From: Acidobacteriota bacterium
GTDB taxonomy: Bacteria; Acidobacteriota; UBA6911; RPQK01; JAJDTT01
Assembly (NCBI GenBank): GCA_965217775.1
Contig: CBDCJH010000002.1
Coordinates: 3,200,001-3,264,000 of the forward strand
DNA length: 64,000 bases
Direction: 5' to 3'
Part shown: positions 12,131 to 18,949 of the stretch, in pieces
Layout: each line of letters opens with the position of its first letter
How positions within the stretch are numbered: the first letter of the stretch is position 1
The notes under the pieces: generated by a model
The model's input: the letters and a program-made list of their open reading frames with translations, nothing else
The model's database searches: none
What the model was told of the DNA's origin: nothing
Position numbers and translations under genes: made by a program

Positions 12131-13701
12131 CGTTGCGTCCCGCTACGTCGCGTGCCGGCGACTCTCAACACGGGCCTTTGAATAGCCTCACATTCCCCAT
12201 ACGGTCACCGTGGCCCCACCCGCCGTTTCGTCGCGGCGATAGATCTTGTCTTCCCATGACCTCCCCTCGGAGCGGTCGAAGATCACGAGGTGTCCCTCCG
12301 ATGCGGCGCAGCGTTCCATGTAGGCGCGCGTTTGCGCCAAGCCTTCGCGAAGCGTTGCATCGAGGCCCCGATGCAGCACTTTGCATTCGACGACCACCTT
12401 CTGCATCTGCCGGTCCGTTCCGGATTGCGCCTCGCTGGCGCGCCCTGCAACTGGTGACAGGATCAACAGATCCGTCCGCCTCCGGCCCAGGCCGTACTCG
12501 CGCTCGATCCGCCCGCCGCTGTTGACGATGCGCTGCAGGAACGCTTGCAACAAAAGTTGTGGGCCAGCCTCCTTGTACTGGAAGCGCTCCACCCAGTGCT
12601 CCGAGTGCTCCCGGAAGAACTCCTGGAACGCGGCCATCAGCTTGACGGACCGCAACGCCCCGTTCTCATCGACGTACCACGCCGGATCGTGATGGATCGA
12701 CATCTCCTGAGTGGTATAGGTGAGACCGCGCGGGATCACTTCGCGGTAGATGGGATTGGCGATGGCCACGGGGCCGGTTCGCGTCACCAGGCCCAGGTCG
12801 CGCACATACGCCAGATCGTCGGCTGGGATCGGGTCAACCGCGCCGGACCCCTTCAGCAGCGGCTCGACGACCCGGCGCACCCGCTCCTCCTGCAGCTTGT
12901 CGGTGAGCTGGTCCAGATGGGTCTCGCGACGCAGGATCAATTGCTCGCGCGCGTCCTGGATGGCGTCGCCGGTGATCTCCCGGCTACGGTCCCGGCCTTC
13001 CTTGTTGTCGAAACAGGTTTCGTAGGCCAGGGCGTTCACCAGCCAGGGCTGGCCCTGCGTCAACCTCCAGATCTCGTCCCGCCCCTCGTCCGTGAACACT
13101 TGGTCCGTCTCCCCGGTATGTTGTGCCAACAGGGACTCGACCTCGCGTGGCAAGAAATCTCCGAGCCGCAGGGATTCGGCCCGAATGTTGAATGCGCTGC
13201 CACCGGCGACGATGGCGTTTTCGGCCCTGGACCGAATTCGGTAGTCGCGCACGTCGCGAACGCCGCACAGAATCACGCTCTGGGGAAACCGCCGGGGGCG
13301 GTCCGGATAACCGGCCCGGAGCTGACGCAATACCGACAGCAGCGTGTCGCCCATCAGCGCATCGATCTCGTCGATCATGAGCACGAGCGGCTTGGCGTCG
13401 GCTTCGCTCCATCGGGCCAGCGTCTCCCCCAGCGCGTCGTTGGGGCCCGCTGTTGCTAGAATCCCCGGCCAAACTTCAGCCACGAACAGGTCGTCCAGCG
13501 CGTGGCGCGCCGCCCGCGCCAGGGCGCTGAGGATCGCTCGCACACCCTCACGGACATTTTCCCGGGCCGCCGGGCCGCCGGGCCGCCTTCGACGTTGACG
13601 TACACGCACCGGAACTCGCCGCCGAGGTTCAACTCGTCCCTCAGCGCCAGCAGTGCCGAAGTCTTGCCCGTCTGACGCGGCGCGCGCAGGACGAAGTATT
13701 T

Positions 13702-13810
13702 GGGGCTTATATACCTAAGTGCCATTGGCATACAGTTCTGGCACCACGCTTTCCCCAACGAGATACGTTCCGGTACCCAGGGCAAGAACCCCAGCCCTGA
13801 GAATGTTCAG
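13702..13810 (-). ncRNA. Putative omega/reRNA scaffold overlapping the tnpB 3' end and the right TIR
   Basis: Minus-strand stems CAGGGC/GCCCTG, GGTACC/GGTGCC and TGTATGCC/GGTATATA; loop GGGGTT complementary to the terminal AGCCCC. The 5' boundary is uncertain. Confidence 0.55.
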
Positions 13811-14890
13811 GGCGGCATTGTGGTCCCTGTCCATTCTAAGTCCGCAGGCCCTGCACCGGAAGGTTTCGCTCCGCCCTGGATCGTGGCGGGCGCCGCACCG
13901 GTGGCAGTCCTGCGATGTAAATGCGGGATTCACGTCTACGAACTTCCGACCGGCCCATTCTGCCTTGTACTGGATTTGATTCCGCAGAAGCCCCCAGGAT
14001 TGCGTCAGTATTTCTCGATTCAGCCCCTTCTTCTTCGAGCCCTTCGTTACCATCCCTTGGATGTTCAGCTTCTCCACAGCGATCAGACCGTGCTCACGAA
14101 TGATGCTGCTGGAGAGACGATGGCAGGCATTACGGTTTCGGACCGATTCCCGGTGACGGAGCCGAGATAGCTGTACGATCCGCTTCCGTCTGGTCTTGGA
14201 AATCTTCTTGCACCTGGAGACCTTTCTCTGCTGCTTTCGGATCCCCGCCCAGTCCCGTCTATTCCGTTCGATCCTCTCACCCGTGGACAGCACCGCTCGC
14301 TGGCGGACTCCCAGGTCGATCCCCACCGAAGACTCGCATTTCGGCAGCGGCAGCTTCTCCACCTCGTACGTCAGGTCCACGGACACCCGGTTCGGCTTGC
14401 GGACGATCCGCAACGCCTTCAACGGGCATCCGTTCGGCAACGGCCGGGACGGAAAGATCCGGATCGTCGGAAAGCCCTTGGGCCGGATGGCGTAGCCCCG
14501 AGCCCGCTTCTTCACCAGGGTCGCCTTGGGGTCGACGACGTCCATGGTCTCCATCCTCGCCAGGGGCCGGAACCGAGGATACCCCGGCTTCTCCCCCGCC
14601 TTGCATCGACGGAAGAACGCCTGGAAGGCCCGATCCAATCGAACCAGCATCCCACGCTCCGCCTTGACCGCCACTGACCCGAGCCCCTCCGGATCTTCCT
14701 TCCTCATGGAGGTCAACCCCTTCATCTGATCGTACAGGGTCACACCGCGCTGCTCGGACTCCCATGCCATCCTCCGTTCCTCCAGTGCCGCGTTGTACAG
14801 CCGATTCAGGATGGACCTCACCCAGTCCAACCGCCGGATTCCACCCTTGGACAGCTTGGCTCTGCACTGGATAGTTGCGTGGCCTTTCAT
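13715..14890 (-). CDS. tnpB: TnpB RNA-guided endonuclease (RuvC intact)
   Basis: 'LYNAALEERR', 'KPGYPRF', RuvC-I VGIDLG, RuvC-II IAVEKL, Zn finger TSQDCHRCG...CRACG, RuvC-III DRDHNAALNI. Confidence 0.95.
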   Translation of the reverse strand: MKGHATIQCRAKLSKGGIRRLDWVRSILNRLYNAALEERRMAWESEQRGVTLYDQMKGLTSMRKEDPEGLGSVAVKAERGMLVRLDRAFQAFFRRCKAGEKPGYPRFRPLARMETMDVVDPKATLVKKRARGYAIRPKGFPTIRIFPSRPLPNGCPLKALRIVRKPNRVSVDLTYEVEKLPLPKCESSVGIDLGVRQRAVLSTGERIERNRRDWAGIRKQQRKVSRCKKISKTRRKRIVQLSRLRHRESVRNRNACHRLSSSIIREHGLIAVEKLNIQGMVTKGSKKKGLNREILTQSWGLLRNQIQYKAEWAGRKFVDVNPAFTSQDCHRCGARHDPGRSETFRCRACGLRMDRDHNAALNILRAGVLALGTGTYLVGESVVPELYANGT

Positions 14891-15199
14891 GGTAGGACTT
14901 GTAAACCATCAGCCTGAATTCTCGGCACTTAGGCATATAATCCCCAAGTATTTCCACTGCCGGATGAGCATCAGGAAATCGTCGACGTCGAGCCGCTCCA
15001 GGGGCGGGATACTGTAGTGCATTTCCGGGTTCACCGGGCCGGCGGTGTTGAAGAAACGCATAGTTTGAGTATCGCACGTTGTCTCGGGTCACGCAGTGCA
15101 CCGAGAGGAGGGGCGTCCTCGGAACAAGACGCGGCATCGCCTCAAGACGCTGTAGACAGCAGGGTCGGAAGAACTGAGACGTGAACCGGTACGAGCAGT

Positions 15200-17047
15200 T
15201 CAGCCCGACGGGAGTGCGTACCCCAGGGCATGGGCGGCTCGCCGAAAGGCGGTTTCGGATCTTGCGGGAACGACGAGCCCGCGCGGACCGGCGCGCACGC
15301 AGTACCTGGCCGCCCGCCGGTCGGCGGCAATCCGTTCGGCGATCTCCTTGTCCGCGCACTCGATCATCAGGGCCGGGCCCTTCCGCTTCAGGGCGCGCCC
15401 GCCGAGCTCGACGCTTCGGATGAAGCCTTCGACCTTCTGCGGCAGCGGCTGATCGTCACGCGCGTCAAGAAATTCCCTCAACTGCGCCACGTCCTGACCG
15501 CTCTCGACGGCCGTGAGAGCGCGCGTGAGATCCAGTCGCCAGACCCCGTCGGACTCGACCCGGGCATAGGTCTCCAGCACCACGAGTTCCTCGGGCGGCA
15601 GCGGTGCCGCCGATTCGACCCGCAGGTCGGTATACAGAGTCAGAGCGGTTCGAATCGGCGGACTGCCCGGCTCGTATTCGTCCGTCTGGCCGACACAATA
15701 GGCGCCCAAGGGATTGAGCCGGAAATACTCCAGACCGTCGTAACGGCTCAGGAATTCCAGATCGTCCGCACCCCACATGTGCCGGAAGTCCCGCCGTGCC
15801 CCGTGCGGGTCGGTGAACGCGACGTCCACCAAACCCAGGGTGGCCACGTACTCGAGCAACAAGCACAGGACATAGCGTCCCTGGAGCAGACTCCACTCGT
15901 GATTGCCGGCAAAGCCGAAGCTGCCGTGCCGCATCTCAACGAGGTAGAGGCGCCACGGATCCCGCGTGACACTGACGTCCAGTTCCGCCGCCTCCATGAA
16001 GCGGAAGAATTCGTCCACCTGCACCCACCCCCCCACGGGACACTCGGCGAGCGCCTCGTCGATCATGGGCCGGCGATTCCGCACGGCCGTCATCGTCCGT
16101 TTGCCCCGCCCCCGGTGCTGGCCCTTGATGTCCTCCATGCGGCTGAACTCATCCAACAACGTGCTCTTCAGCCACCACTGCCAGATCCGCCGCAGCGTCT
16201 CAGCGGGCGGGGTCGTGAAGGCCGCGCGCCCGGCCTTGGTCAACACCAGCTTGGAGCCGCGCCGTTGGACCAGCTTGCCGGCCTGCACCAGCCAGGGCCA
16301 AGCGAATGCCCGGATGGAGCCGATCGTCTGTTCCCAGCGCTTCCTCTTCTCGTTCGGGTCGAAGAAATCGCCGCCGTGCAGCACCTCCGCGATGCGGCGC
16401 ACGGAAACCGCCGACGCGCGCCGGGTCTTCACGCTGACGGAGATCTTGCCTTGATCGACCAGACGCAGCACTGCGAACAGGTCGTAAGCCGCAGGCTGCT
16501 CCATGTCGCGCCGAGTCAGGCGTACTCTGTCGAATTGCGGTTTCTGACCCTTGGGAACGAAGGCGATCCGGCGCCGATCGACGAATTCCGGAACTTCATC
16601 CACGGCAGAGACGGTCGGTTCCTCCGGCTCGGGCACGAACTCCAGGAGCTGATTTTCGAGGTCTCTGGGGATGGTCGTCGGTGCAAAATACCGGTAGCCG
16701 TCCGCAGGGTAGAGAAACAGGTGCAACAGGGTAGGCTCAATGGTATCGCCTTTGTCGATGCGCTTCGGCAACACTCCGTACTTGGCGCGAAACCGTTTGG
16801 CCTCGAATCGGCCCTCCAGGCCATAGAGCGCTTCCTTCACCGCCAACTGCTGAGTCTTGTCAAGCCGCTCCCACAGTTCTCGCAACGGCCTGCCAGTCAG
16901 ACGGAGCGAGATGGCCTCCACCATGTCCGCCTTCAGTCTCGGCCGCGGCTTGGGGATGGACAGCAGATTCATCATCGGTTTGAGGGTCGGAACCGACAGG
17001 GCCGACAGGGCCTTCTTCAGGGTGGCGGACGGTAGTTTGATTCTCAT
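15200..17047 (-). CDS. Helicase-associated domain protein (XPB/Ssl2-associated Helicase_C_3-like C-terminus), copy 2
   Basis: C-terminal 'WRLDLTRALTAVESGQDVAQLREFLDARDDQPLPQKVEGFI'; clearly paralogous to the 17114..18949 gene. Confidence 0.7.
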   Translation of the reverse strand: MRIKLPSATLKKALSALSVPTLKPMMNLLSIPKPRPRLKADMVEAISLRLTGRPLRELWERLDKTQQLAVKEALYGLEGRFEAKRFRAKYGVLPKRIDKGDTIEPTLLHLFLYPADGYRYFAPTTIPRDLENQLLEFVPEPEEPTVSAVDEVPEFVDRRRIAFVPKGQKPQFDRVRLTRRDMEQPAAYDLFAVLRLVDQGKISVSVKTRRASAVSVRRIAEVLHGGDFFDPNEKRKRWEQTIGSIRAFAWPWLVQAGKLVQRRGSKLVLTKAGRAAFTTPPAETLRRIWQWWLKSTLLDEFSRMEDIKGQHRGRGKRTMTAVRNRRPMIDEALAECPVGGWVQVDEFFRFMEAAELDVSVTRDPWRLYLVEMRHGSFGFAGNHEWSLLQGRYVLCLLLEYVATLGLVDVAFTDPHGARRDFRHMWGADDLEFLSRYDGLEYFRLNPLGAYCVGQTDEYEPGSPPIRTALTLYTDLRVESAAPLPPEELVVLETYARVESDGVWRLDLTRALTAVESGQDVAQLREFLDARDDQPLPQKVEGFIRSVELGGRALKRKGPALMIECADKEIAERIAADRRAARYCVRAGPRGLVVPARSETAFRRAAHALGYALPSG

Positions 17048-17113: not shown

Positions 17114-18949
17114 TCAACGCAAGGACAAAGCGTACCCCAAGGCGCGGGCCACTCGCCGAAACGCCGCTTCGGATCCTGCATGAACGACGAGGTGGCGGAG
17201 GCCGGCGCGCAGGCAGAGCTTGGCCGCCCGCCGGTCGGCAACGATCCGGTCGGCGACTTTCCGGTCCCGGCATTCAATCAACCAGGCCCTGCCCTTGGGC
17301 GTCAGAGCGCTCGCACCGCGCTCGACGCTGCGGAGGAATCCTTCGACCCTTTCCGGCAACGGCTGATCGTCGCGCACGGCGAGAAATCGCCTCAGTCTCG
17401 CCACGTCCTGACCGCTCTCGGCGGCCGTAAGTGCGCGTAAGAGATCCAGGCGCCAGACACCGTCGGACTCAGCCTGGGCATAGGCCTCCAGCATCAGACG
17501 TTCTTGAGGCGTCAGCGGCGCCGCCGAATGAACGCGAAGATCGGTCTGGAGAGTCAGGGCGGTGCGAATCGTAGGCGTGGTCGGCTCGTAGGCCTTGGTC
17601 TGGCCGAGGCAGTAGGCGCCGAGCGGATTGAGTCGAACATACTCCAGGCCGTCGTAGCGGCTCAAGAAATCAAGCTCATCGGCGCCCCACAGGTGCGTGT
17701 AGTCCAACCGCGCGCCCCGCGGGTCGGTGAAAGCGACGTCCACCATCCCCAGCGTGGCCGCGTACTCGAACAACAGACACCGGGCATAGCGACCCTCGAC
17801 GAAGTTCCAGAGCAGACCTGCGGCATGGCCGAGGCTCCCGTACTCCGGGTCGACGAGGTAGAGACTCCGAGGATCCCGGGTGACGCCGAAACCAAGACCC
17901 GTCGCGTGCATGAAGCGAAAGAGACCGTCCACCTGGACCCAGCCGCCCACGGGGCATTTCGCGAGCGCCTCGGCGATCACGGGTCGGCGCTTTCGCGGCG
18001 ACGTCATCAGCCGCCTGCCCCGTCCTCGAAACTGGCCCTTGATGCCGTCCACGCGGCTGAACTCGTCCAACAAGGTGCTCTTCAACCATCGCTCCCAGAG
18101 GCGTCGCAACGTCTTTTCGGGCGGAGCTGCGAATGTCGCGCGTCCGGCCTTGGTCAAAGTCAGCTTGGAGCCCCGCAATTCGGCGAGTTGGGCGGCTTGC
18201 ACCATCCAGGGCCAAGCGAATGCCCGGACGGGGCCGATCATCTGACCCTGTCGTTTCTTCGCGGTCGGGTCGAAGAAGTCGCCGCCGTGCAGCACCTCCG
18301 CGATGCGTCGGACGGAAACCGCCGTAGGCCTCCGCGTTTTCACGCTGACGGCGATCTTGCCCCCGTCGATCAGATGCAGCACGGCGAACAGGTCGGGCAC
18401 CGCAACCGGCTCCATGCGGCGTCGGATCACGGGCACCCGATCGAACTCCGGTTTCTCGGAACCGTGGGTGCGGCGACGCCGATCTAGGAAGTCCGGAACC
18501 TCATCCAGAGAATCGATGGCCGGTTCCGGCGGCCGGGGGACGAACTTCACCAGTTGGGGCTTGAGTTCCTTGGGGATGACGATCGGAAGATCCCGGTAAC
18601 TGAACGGCGGATAGAGAAAAAAATGCAGCAGCGAAAATTCGCGGTCATAGTACTGATTGATGCCCTCCGGCAGCGCACCGTATACAGCGTAAAAATGTTG
18701 GAGATGGAATCGATGCTCCGGGCTGTAGAGCGTTTCCGACACCGCGAGCTGCTGGGTTTCATCCAGATACCGCCATATCGTTCGTAACACATCTTCAGTC
18801 AGTCGGAGTCGGACGGCCGCTATGATGGCCGGCTTTCGGGTCGGCCGCGGCTCGGGGATGGACAGCACCTCCATCATCGGCTGGAGGTTCGCGATCGTCA
18901 TGTTGCCCAGAGCCTTTTCCAGGGTGGCCGGCCTCGGGTCGACACTCAT
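17114..18949 (-). CDS. Helicase-associated domain protein, copy 1
   Basis: Shares blocks such as RAFAWPW, WLKSTLLDEFSR and FLSRYDGLEY with its neighbour. Confidence 0.7.
   Translation of the reverse strand: MSVDPRPATLEKALGNMTIANLQPMMEVLSIPEPRPTRKPAIIAAVRLRLTEDVLRTIWRYLDETQQLAVSETLYSPEHRFHLQHFYAVYGALPEGINQYYDREFSLLHFFLYPPFSYRDLPIVIPKELKPQLVKFVPRPPEPAIDSLDEVPDFLDRRRRTHGSEKPEFDRVPVIRRRMEPVAVPDLFAVLHLIDGGKIAVSVKTRRPTAVSVRRIAEVLHGGDFFDPTAKKRQGQMIGPVRAFAWPWMVQAAQLAELRGSKLTLTKAGRATFAAPPEKTLRRLWERWLKSTLLDEFSRVDGIKGQFRGRGRRLMTSPRKRRPVIAEALAKCPVGGWVQVDGLFRFMHATGLGFGVTRDPRSLYLVDPEYGSLGHAAGLLWNFVEGRYARCLLFEYAATLGMVDVAFTDPRGARLDYTHLWGADELDFLSRYDGLEYVRLNPLGAYCLGQTKAYEPTTPTIRTALTLQTDLRVHSAAPLTPQERLMLEAYAQAESDGVWRLDLLRALTAAESGQDVARLRRFLAVRDDQPLPERVEGFLRSVERGASALTPKGRAWLIECRDRKVADRIVADRRAAKLCLRAGLRHLVVHAGSEAAFRRVARALGYALSLR

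Follow-up and report, generated by a model that had tools for sequence, protein, structure and literature searches.

A TnpB-only element with IS1595-type inverted ends and 8-bp target-site duplications in an Acidobacteriota genome

A 1244 bp element in an Acidobacteriota bacterium, at positions 13702–14945 of the window (the whole 64,000 nt stretch of contig CBDCJH010000002.1 that was analysed), encodes TnpB alone, is bounded by terminal inverted repeats (TIRs) and is flanked by a target-site duplication (TSD). Judged from its sequence and copies, it is very probably a non-autonomous member of an IS1595-type cut-and-paste lineage that carries nothing but tnpB, active-looking and accompanied by its guide-RNA scaffold. 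The basic observation, predicted from the window, is confirmed: the 22 bp TIRs match at 20 of 22 positions, the 8 bp TSD is exact and tnpB, which occupies 1176 of the 1244 bp, is the only long open reading frame. The degenerate TIR 22-mer, with up to three mismatches allowed, occurs exactly twice in the window versus 0.00 times expected from 100 shuffles, and the TIR at the tnpB 3′ end is found on 12 copies in the genome. The element ends read GGGGATTAT and GGGGCTTAT and may be of the ISNwi1-like type, a subgroup of IS1595. Features are listed in Table 1.

Table 1. Features of the TnpB-only element and the interrupted gene (window positions)
Feature	Position	Strand	Remarks
TIR at tnpB 3′ end	13702..13723		GGGGCTTATATACCTAAGTGCC; holds the tnpB stop codon (13715–13717)
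TIR at tnpB 5′ end	14924..14945		Reverse complement GGGGATTATATGCCTAAGTGCC
TSD, copy downstream of tnpB	13694..13701		AAGTATTT; single copy at the empty site of congeners
TSD, copy upstream of tnpB	14946..14953		AAGTATTT; exact 8-bp match to downstream copy
tnpB	13715..14890	-	391 aa; RuvC D192/E273/D356 and zinc finger intact
omegaRNA-like structured region	13708..13799	-	Four helices; RNAalifold and pair counts
Proposed guide portion of omegaRNA (duplication and flank)	13682..13701	-	Putative, by analogy with IS200/IS605 TnpB
Proposed TAM	14954..14955	-	GG in tnpB sense, directly 5′ of upstream duplication; putative
Interrupted AAA_22 ATPase gene, 3′ part	12188..13693	-	Second lesion at about 13563–13588
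Interrupted ATPase gene, 5′ part	14954..15061	-	36 codons

The insertion and its duplication are proven by the empty sites of congeners, because these carry one copy of the 8-mer. An empty site was found in five of six congeners searched (G006, G001, G002, G003 and G005), where one AAGTATTT or AAGTACTT marks the junction of the two flanks; G004 gave no match. The gene is uninterrupted in these five, which bears out the claim that the element disrupts an ATPase gene, and the intact G006 orthologue is a 537 aa AAA_22 ATPase (2.3e-9). The 3′ part of the interrupted gene displays a second lesion, an extra 8 nt unit at about 13563–13588 that shifts the frame. An excision footprint was considered for this unit and rejected, slippage in the existing GC-rich tandem repeat being simpler.

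The genome contains 12 full-length copies of the cassette at different AT-rich sites. The TSDs are perfect in 10 of these, match at 7 of 8 bases in another and are mismatched in the remaining one; an intact tnpB reading frame of 391 aa is present in 10 of the 12. Thus the further copies with different 8 bp duplications that the original prediction proposed to look for do exist, and so does an IS1595 transposase gene between near-identical ends. The latter is found in ISa, a 1762 bp IS1595 element with five copies in the same genome (four intact). The ISa transposase (334 aa, zinc ribbon and DDE domain; gene at G000:C2:446103–447104, G000 being this genome) matches Pfam DDE_Tnp_IS1595 at 1.8e-38 and NCBIfam transpos_IS1595 with 177 bits (cut-off 75). 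The ISa TIR, GGGGATTATATACGAAAGTGCCGAAA, and the cassette upstream end, GGGGATTATATACGTAAGTGCCGAGA, are identical at 24 of 26 bases, and the ends are all that cassette and ISa have in common. Perfect 8 bp TSDs flank all 11 ISa copies examined and one ISc copy; an 8 bp duplication is the norm of the IS1595 family. ISa also carries a passenger of its own, a Mrr_cat-like frame.

Mobilisation of the cassette in trans, with the transposase supplied from another locus of the genome, is well supported and probable. As to the predicted capture of TnpB by a DDE lineage and its movement in trans, both are supported; the autonomous version with tnp and tnpB together was not seen among the loci read, and the capture step is undocumented for that reason. 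Co-occurrence of cassette and IS1595 transposase is loose, since G005 has five cassettes although the one IS1595 transposase that its better matches include is broken, and G002 has ISa and no cassette. With tnpB as sole open reading frame and no DDE transposase of its own, the element is a cassette or derivative rather than an autonomous IS1595. There is no second open reading frame inside it that could be a serine recombinase TnpA, and Y1_Tnp gave only three weak matches in the genome, all at least 18 kb from any copy.

The same design recurs beyond this genome. Subfamilies with other TIR variants and 8 bp TSDs are found in five of eight congeners, and in a second Acidobacteriota order the design is present in 13 of 251 genomes, with TnpBs 45–55% identical lying between the same kind of ends. 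IS1595 transposases are present in all five of the second-order genomes with the cassette design that were searched. The pairing of these TIRs with tnpB is seen throughout: all 12 copies have it, as do at least five TIR subfamilies in the genus and the elements from the second order, so that the co-occurrence expected by the original prediction holds always across this clade. A quick tree groups the TIR-bearing TnpBs into a single clade (SH-aLRT 99), Bryo_L349 being disregarded there for its 8.9-unit branch, probably the result of a wrongly cut open reading frame. That clade and end type have stayed together across 45–55% protein divergence is the ground on which the TIR/tnpB design is judged to be old. 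Close homologues linked to IS605, which would have spoken against the prediction, were not seen: Y1/IS605 linkage appears only among relatives at 30–39% identity, where 7 of 33 have an upstream Y1_Tnp and none an IS1595 transposase. The contig and metagenome scans used very conserved peptide patterns and found, outside the genus, only relatives of 40% identity or less; those at 45–57% came from a protein search, their loci were reached by genome search, and the peptide-pattern scans missed them. The TIR finder depends on an exact 10-mer seed, and its negatives for distant loci are weak because it missed degenerate ends even within the genus (L074, L075 and L079, later recognised by eye).

The TnpB sequence shows the expected domains, with matches to Pfam OrfB_IS605 (PF01385; 6.3e-17, 62.3 bits, cut-off 30.5), Cas12f1-like_TNB (PF07282; 2.1e-25, 89.1 bits, cut-off 26.3) and NCBIfam guided_TnpB (NF040570; 204.6 bits, cut-off 100). 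Among natural proteins of solved structure, the IS605-family ISDra2 TnpB (8bf8, E = 4.8e-32) is the closest relative. D192, E273 and D356 align with its catalytic GVDVG, TEHL and DRDENAA stretches, and a CxxC...CxxC zinc-finger motif is formed by C329, C332, C346 and C349. No aligned subfamily (alignments A1 and A2) has lost the RuvC D/E/D triad or the zinc finger, so the description of these motifs as intact was correct. Among the 10 intact copies of the genome the dN/dS of tnpB is 0.32, which shows the gene to be under purifying selection. The dS of these copies declines toward the 3′ end, from 0.083 to 0.052 to 0.024. A promoter and terminator scan found no sigma-70-like promoter and no terminator on the tnpB strand.

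A conserved RNA fold covers the 3′ end of the element; in its last helix, bases of the stop-codon region are paired with the inner TIR half. In a 13-sequence alignment the fold has 28 pairs, 98.4% paired compared with 33–50.5% when slid. With 26 sequences from the two orders there are 27 pairs, 98.3% paired versus 29–48% when slid, and 14 pairs show double changes; 0 of 500 shuffles scored as high. The element's final ~100 nt, among them the inner TIR half, are read as a probable omegaRNA scaffold. For IS200/IS605 TnpB the scaffold ends at the element boundary, according to the text of Yoon et al. (2023; PMC10711439). With the same arrangement here, the guide, read in tnpB sense, would open with the 8 nt of the downstream TSD copy. 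An Rfam search of the element gave nothing above threshold and a 16.8-bit chance match only. Contigs from RNA libraries cover the element, but strand and ends are not readable from them, gaps in their coverage carry no meaning and they may derive from DNA.

The base next to the upstream duplication is nearly invariant. G is at position −1 in 40 of 41 cassette sites (genus, 20 of 21; second order, 20 of 20), against 5 of 12 sites of the transposase-bearing IS1595 elements, and it is proposed that this G may be the TAM. A single-base TAM would be unusually short for a TnpB, which counts against this. A plausible minority explanation is that the G (or GG) reflects a target preference of the IS1595 transposase or of the asymmetric ends, and that TnpB uses another motif, for example in the AT-rich 8-mer. 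In DDE strand transfer the transposon end is joined to the base at −1, which brings this base into contact with the transposase, and ISa sites display a weak G|A...T|C tendency, with G at −1 in 5 of 12 sites of the IS1595 elements themselves and C at +1 in 4 of 12; this comparison depends on only 12 autonomous sites. The Fanzors offer a precedent, as their 5′ TSD is part of the TAM and their 3′ TSD part of the scaffold, according to the texts of PMC13565253 and PMC10711439. However, if the transpososome were symmetric, C at +1 and G at −1 would be expected equally often. Cassettes have C at +1 in only 9 of 21 sites in the genus and in 3 of 15 from the second order, so that the bias goes with the orientation of tnpB. 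Nor does the AT-rich 3′ half of the 8-mer carry a specific motif at the genus sites. A further idea, that the G belongs to a hybrid promoter, was rejected, since a G located 9 nt upstream of the TIR would belong to a spacer rather than to a −35 box.

The following mechanism may be proposed, in which the G acts as TAM. An ISa-type transposase would bind the shared ends and move the cassette in trans. Transcription of tnpB would run through the downstream TIR into the flank and give an omegaRNA; the TIR would close its scaffold, and the duplication and flank would serve as its guide. TnpB would then cut the matching unoccupied site, recognised by the G (often GG) just 5′ of the 8-mer, while at the occupied site the terminal C of the element would be at the TAM position and the element's own locus would be spared. 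TnpB of IS605 makes a cut that favours copying the element back by recombination, and the cut here would favour recombinational copying in the same way. That the lineage has fused the two systems in this manner, as an old and still active union in which the IS1595 TIR is the 3′ end of the omegaRNA scaffold and the flanking G versus the terminal C distinguishes non-self from self, is offered as a tentative and rather doubtful proposal.

Nuclease-dead TnpB derivatives with new roles exist, and this counts in favour of tnpB being a passive or re-purposed cargo here (a regulator or transposition helper) that no longer acts as an RNA-guided homing nuclease. So does a point made in the text of a 2026 review (PMC13565253): since a break is produced by excision anyway, a cut-and-paste element would gain little from a homing nuclease. 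The same point counts against the homing model above. Such a loss of function nevertheless appears improbable, given that the RuvC residues and zinc finger persist in all aligned subfamilies, that dN/dS is low and that the omegaRNA-like fold is conserved by covariation.

Least probable by far is that TIRs and tnpB form no functional unit and result from a one-off nested insertion of an IS605/IS1341-type tnpB into an IS1595-derived MITE, an objection raised with the original prediction itself; the kinship with ISDra2 TnpB and the Y1-linked distant relatives agree with it, and nested insertion of some such kind is the likeliest origin of the lineage, but for the present element it is contradicted by the recurrent association with tnpB, by the reading frame filling the element with its stop inside the TIR, by TIR bases pairing in the conserved fold, and by the lack of room for IS605 ends or of any Y1_Tnp match nearby.

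The cassette shares features with several known systems. As in the IS1595 family, it has GGGG(A/C)TTATA... inverted ends and AT-rich 8 bp duplications, and the partner element encodes a zinc-ribbon and DDE_Tnp_IS1595 transposase; unlike that family, it is without transposase and carries an RNA-guided nuclease together with the RNA of this nuclease. The family and length of the protein (alignable with 8bf8 over residues 31–376) and the structured RNA overlapping the 3′ end of the gene are as in the tnpB-only IS1341 group of IS200/IS605, a family served by a Y1 TnpA in cis or in trans. IS607 elements have a serine recombinase TnpA and neither TIRs nor duplications; the present element has both TIRs and TSDs, and no second open reading frame. 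IS200/IS605 elements have hairpin ends and likewise lack TIRs and duplications, as stated in the text of PMC13565253, and here too the element differs. The assignment to neither of these types thus stands. In Fanzors, TIR and TSD form part of the guide-RNA scaffold, according to the text of Yoon et al. (2023; PMC10711439). The 8 bp duplication of the cassette is variable, and so not a fixed part of a scaffold, and the conserved flank base is outside the duplication. The host is bacterial and the TnpB an ordinary short one, in contrast to Fanzor1 and Fanzor2*.

The implied novelty of a TnpB in a DDE transposon is overstated. The text of Altae-Tran et al. (2023; PMC10691335) describes six DDE-associated TnpB branches (DDE-1 to DDE-6) with inverted terminal repeats, as well as solo TnpBs with the same ends, presumably mobilised in trans. 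The cassette resembles the former in having tnpB between inverted repeats with its 3′ end near the transposon end, and the latter in having ends nearly identical to those of transposase-bearing elements, from which mobilisation in trans follows as the probable reading in both cases. IS630 (DDE-6) is the only family named in the text of that paper, and the text of the 2026 review (PMC13565253) lists ISL2, IS630 and IS1031. IS1595 is not named as TnpB-linked in the searchable text of PMC10691335, and its supplement has it only among transposase profiles. One of the six branches could be this lineage, the comparison being with the text, outside of which lie Figure 4 and Additional Files 10 and 11. 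Unlike those branches, no copy here holds a transposase within the element, nor a DDE gene within 1000 bp, the operational rule in the supplement of PMC10691335.

One practical consequence concerns annotation: tnpB-only genes can be misfiled as IS200/IS605 by annotation pipelines, and one close database relative is so named. To our knowledge, the help that a bacterial TnpB gives to its transposon is understood almost entirely from IS605 and IS607, elements with scarless excision that make no duplications, and the fit of a TnpB with a target-duplicating DDE element has been worked out only for the eukaryotic Fanzors. The cassettes offer a natural test system, with 10 intact copies, a candidate transposase that is intact and has matching ends, empty sites known from sister genomes and a concrete prediction of TAM and guide. 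If the proposed mechanism is true, a bacterial cut-and-paste transposon that duplicates its target would be driven in its spread or retention by an RNA-guided nuclease. The lineage would then be a functioning prokaryotic equivalent of Fanzor1, and it would contradict the opinion that DDE elements have little use for homing nucleases.

The tnpB-only cassette is an insertion into an ATPase gene, as the original prediction had it, and this is proven by empty sites. In five congeneric genomes (G001, G002, G003, G005 and G006) the cassette flanks match adjoining DNA with an overlap of exactly 8 bases, and the empty sites display a single AAGTATTT or AAGTACTT. A sixth congener searched with the cassette flanks, G004, gave no match. 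The G006 orthologue of the interrupted gene is an intact 537 aa AAA_22 ATPase, and two RNA libraries contain contigs of the empty form, with position 13693 joined directly to 14946.

Features of the cassette and its insertion site (window positions)
Feature	Position	Strand	Description
Cassette	13702-14945		1244 bp, bounded by 22-bp inverted repeats
Terminal inverted repeat (TIR), tnpB 3′ end	13702-13723		GGGGCTTATATACCTAAGTGCC
TIR, tnpB 5′ end	14924-14945	other strand	GGGGATTATATGCCTAAGTGCC
Target duplication (TSD)	13694-13701 and 14946-14953		AAGTATTT, both sides of cassette
tnpB ORF	13715-14890	minus	391 aa, sole long ORF of cassette
Four helices of predicted RNA fold	13708-13799	minus	alignment-based pair counts

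The window ATPase gene carries a second lesion at about 13563-13588, where three tandem 8-nt GC-rich units are present and the gene's own frame requires two; the extra unit results in a frameshift. At this repeat the G006 orthologue lacks 8 nt and also shows two base differences. Although the length equals that of an IS1595 duplication, slippage is the simpler reading because the unit is GC-rich and lies within a pre-existing repeat. Adjoining the ATPase gene are two adjacent paralogous ORFs (15200-17047 and 17114-18949, minus strand; 615 and 611 aa), alike across their full length.

The tnpB ORF occupies 1176 of the 1244 bp, with its stop codon within the TIR. Its product matches Pfam OrfB_IS605 and Cas12f1-like_TNB as well as NCBIfam guided_TnpB (204.6 bits, cut-off 100). 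It aligns with ISDra2 TnpB (8bf8) at residues 31-376 (E = 4.8e-32), with D192, E273, D356 and the CxxC...CxxC motif in register. Judged by these matches, the ORF encodes TnpB. The two TIRs agree at 20 of 22 positions and are the sole occurrences in the window of the degenerate 22-mer (≤3 mismatches; 0.00 expected from 100 shuffles). Passages of a 2026 review (PMC13565253) describe IS200/IS605 and IS607 elements as having neither TIRs nor duplications. The cassette has both; thus the protein belongs with these families but the element does not.

A search of the genome, which comprises two contigs totalling 6.43 Mb at 62% GC, shows 12 full-length cassettes with pairwise identities of 95.1-98.8%, so that the further copies anticipated at other sites are present. 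Ten have perfect 8-bp TSDs, AT-rich and all different from each other; one TSD matches at 7/8 and one pair is unmatched. The 391 aa ORF is kept in 10 of the 12. These ten intact tnpB copies have a dN/dS of 0.32. Their dS declines along the gene (0.083, 0.052 and then 0.024 at the 3′ end), as would be expected if the last third were under an additional constraint. Y1_Tnp, the IS605-type transposase, gave only three weak matches in the genome, none less than 18 kb from a cassette.

Three copies on contig C2 of this genome (G000) are irregular. The cassette at C2:1186780-1188023 is flanked by unlike 8-mers, ATATGTTT and AATCCATT (window orientation), suggesting that two copies have recombined and so rearranged the genome. 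Those at C2:4647309-4648714 (1406 bp) and C2:2358592-2359856 (1265 bp) are over-length with broken ORFs, the former carrying an insert of about 160 bp near element position 220.

The same 22-mer search also finds the IS1595 transposase element that had been sought, here termed ISa, as four copies of 1762 bp and a frameshifted one of 1760 bp. Both ends read GGGGATTATATACGAAAGTGCCGAAA, and all five copies have perfect 8-bp TSDs. The 334 aa product contains Zn_ribbon_IS1595 and DDE_Tnp_IS1595 (1.8e-38) and gives 177 bits with NCBIfam transpos_IS1595 (cut-off 75). The ISa end and the upstream end of the cassette, GGGGATTATATACGTAAGTGCCGAGA, have 24 of 26 bases in common, and no common sequence was found between the two elements beyond the 22-27 nt ends. 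The transposases of other IS1595 lineages in the genus are 52-67% identical, and every one of these lineages starts GGGGATTATA. ISa is the likely driver of the cassette.

In the ISa copy at G000:C2:445385-447146 the transposase is followed by some 700 bp of passenger DNA, including a 146-codon open frame (locus L040:1714-2154, minus strand) with an Mrr_cat/inactive-restriction-endonuclease fold (PF04471, 2.8e-6; PF22722, 7.8e-8). Therefore this IS lineage has cargo in autonomous form too.

Cassettes are found in 5 of 8 congeners, including subfamilies 72-84% identical in DNA. The subfamily TIRs diverge internally (e.g. GGGGCTTATATATCTAACTTGA, GGGGATTATAAAGAGTGTTTGACA and GGGGCTTATATACTTGGCTAGCC) and retain the GGGG(A/C)TTATA start and 8-bp TSDs. 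Outside the genus, the rest of the class gave no hit in 128 genomes (E ≤ 1e-90); a phylum sample gave 3 of 301 (E ≤ 1e-60), all within the genus. TnpB relatives at 45-57% identity in the protein database are found in 13 of 251 genomes of a second order, Bryobacterales, often in multiple copies. These are also flanked by TIR-type ends such as GGGGATTATATACCAAAGTGCCCA and 8-bp TSDs: of 25 loci, a script scored 10 perfect and 5 with one or two mismatches, inspection by eye added 4 perfect and one at 7/8, and 5 are unresolved or unmatched. All five cassette-bearing genomes searched in this order contain IS1595 transposases, encoded on elements with GGGG(A/C)TTAT... ends and 8-bp TSDs.

In a quick maximum-likelihood tree (one mis-cut row to be disregarded), 30 TIR-linked TnpBs form one clade (SH-aLRT 99) whose sister consists of three TnpBs without such ends, as judged by eye. 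Close homologues of IS605 type would have spoken against capture; Y1-linked tnpB loci were found only among 33 distant ones (30-39% identity), with Y1_Tnp immediately upstream in 7, and an IS1595 transposase was found at none of the 33. Since the TIR-linked TnpBs are monophyletic, the association is old and some distant relatives are Y1-linked, the simplest history is that an IS1595 lineage captured an IS605-type TnpB once and that the two have long coexisted since. The proposed capture by a DDE lineage with mobilisation in trans is thus supported by the co-resident ISa, the single clade and the diverged subfamilies.

The 3′ end of the cassette forms a predicted RNA structure. Aligning the last 200 nt of 13 genus cassettes (tnpB sense) yields a fold of four helices and 28 pairs, in which 98.4% of cells are paired versus 33-50.5% when partners are slid, and 10 pairs show both-side changes versus 2-3. 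With the second order added (26 sequences, 130 nt) the fold is unchanged: 27 pairs, 98.3% paired versus 29-48%, and double changes at 14 pairs versus 4-6, values reached by none of 500 shuffles. In the last helix the stop-codon surroundings pair with positions ~8-14 from the element end, i.e. the inner half of the TIR, leaving the terminal AAGCCCC single-stranded. An Rfam search of the element gave no match. We read this conserved fold, predicted from sequence alignments, as a putative omegaRNA scaffold; the RNA-library data are contigs only. The same arrangement, a TIR inside the scaffold, is predicted in passages of Yoon et al. 2023 (PMC10711439) for Fanzors of TIR/TSD transposons.

The base directly 5′ of the upstream TSD (−1, sites oriented by tnpB) is G at 20 of 21 genus sites and 20 of 20 second-order sites. 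The genus sites are those with ≤1 TSD mismatch among 38 motif pairs from a loose script; of the 17 excluded, three are true copies whose flanks do not match and the others are pairings by chance. In the genus G also occupies −2 at 15/21 sites, and the first TSD base is A, and the second A or T, at 21/21. The mirror position 3′ of the downstream TSD is C in only 9/21 (genus) and 3/15 (second order), and the autonomous sites of ISa and another IS1595 element, ISc, show G at −1 in 5/12 and C at +1 in 4/12. A bias that follows the direction of tnpB is expected of a TAM, the motif beside a TnpB target, but not of a symmetric transpososome, and this favours the TAM reading. Alternatively, as in Fanzors, the TAM may lie within the 5′ duplication. 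A one-base TAM would be unusual. From these sequence biases G at −1 is nevertheless the candidate TAM. As in IS200/IS605, the guide would start where the element ends. An unoccupied site would then read G, 8-mer, flank and an occupied one ...CCCC, 8-mer, flank, making −1 the exact position that separates target from self.

The concept of a DDE-linked TnpB is already in print, since the portions of Altae-Tran et al. 2023 (PMC10691335) consulted describe six branches of DDE-associated TnpB. Each branch has inverted terminal repeats, the TnpB 3′ ends lie ≤250 bp from the transposon end, and solo TnpBs with the same ends are presumed to move in trans. Inverted ends are thus common to these and the cassette. 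IS630 is the only DDE family named in that text, and passages of PMC13565253 name ISL2, IS630 and IS1031; in the PMC10691335 material consulted, IS1595 appears only within a list of profiles. Full-text searches, with subscription journals mostly outside coverage, found no TnpB-IS1595 link, nor did those for TnpB with DDE/TIR/TSD, ISNwi1, or Fanzor with Merlin. The novelty is less than hoped. The cassette is an IS1595 addition to the kind described in 2023. This case contributes an intact multi-copy system that shares its genome with a candidate transposase, empty sites that prove the insertion, and two specific, testable proposals: that the TIR belongs to the RNA scaffold and that the G at −1 is the TAM.
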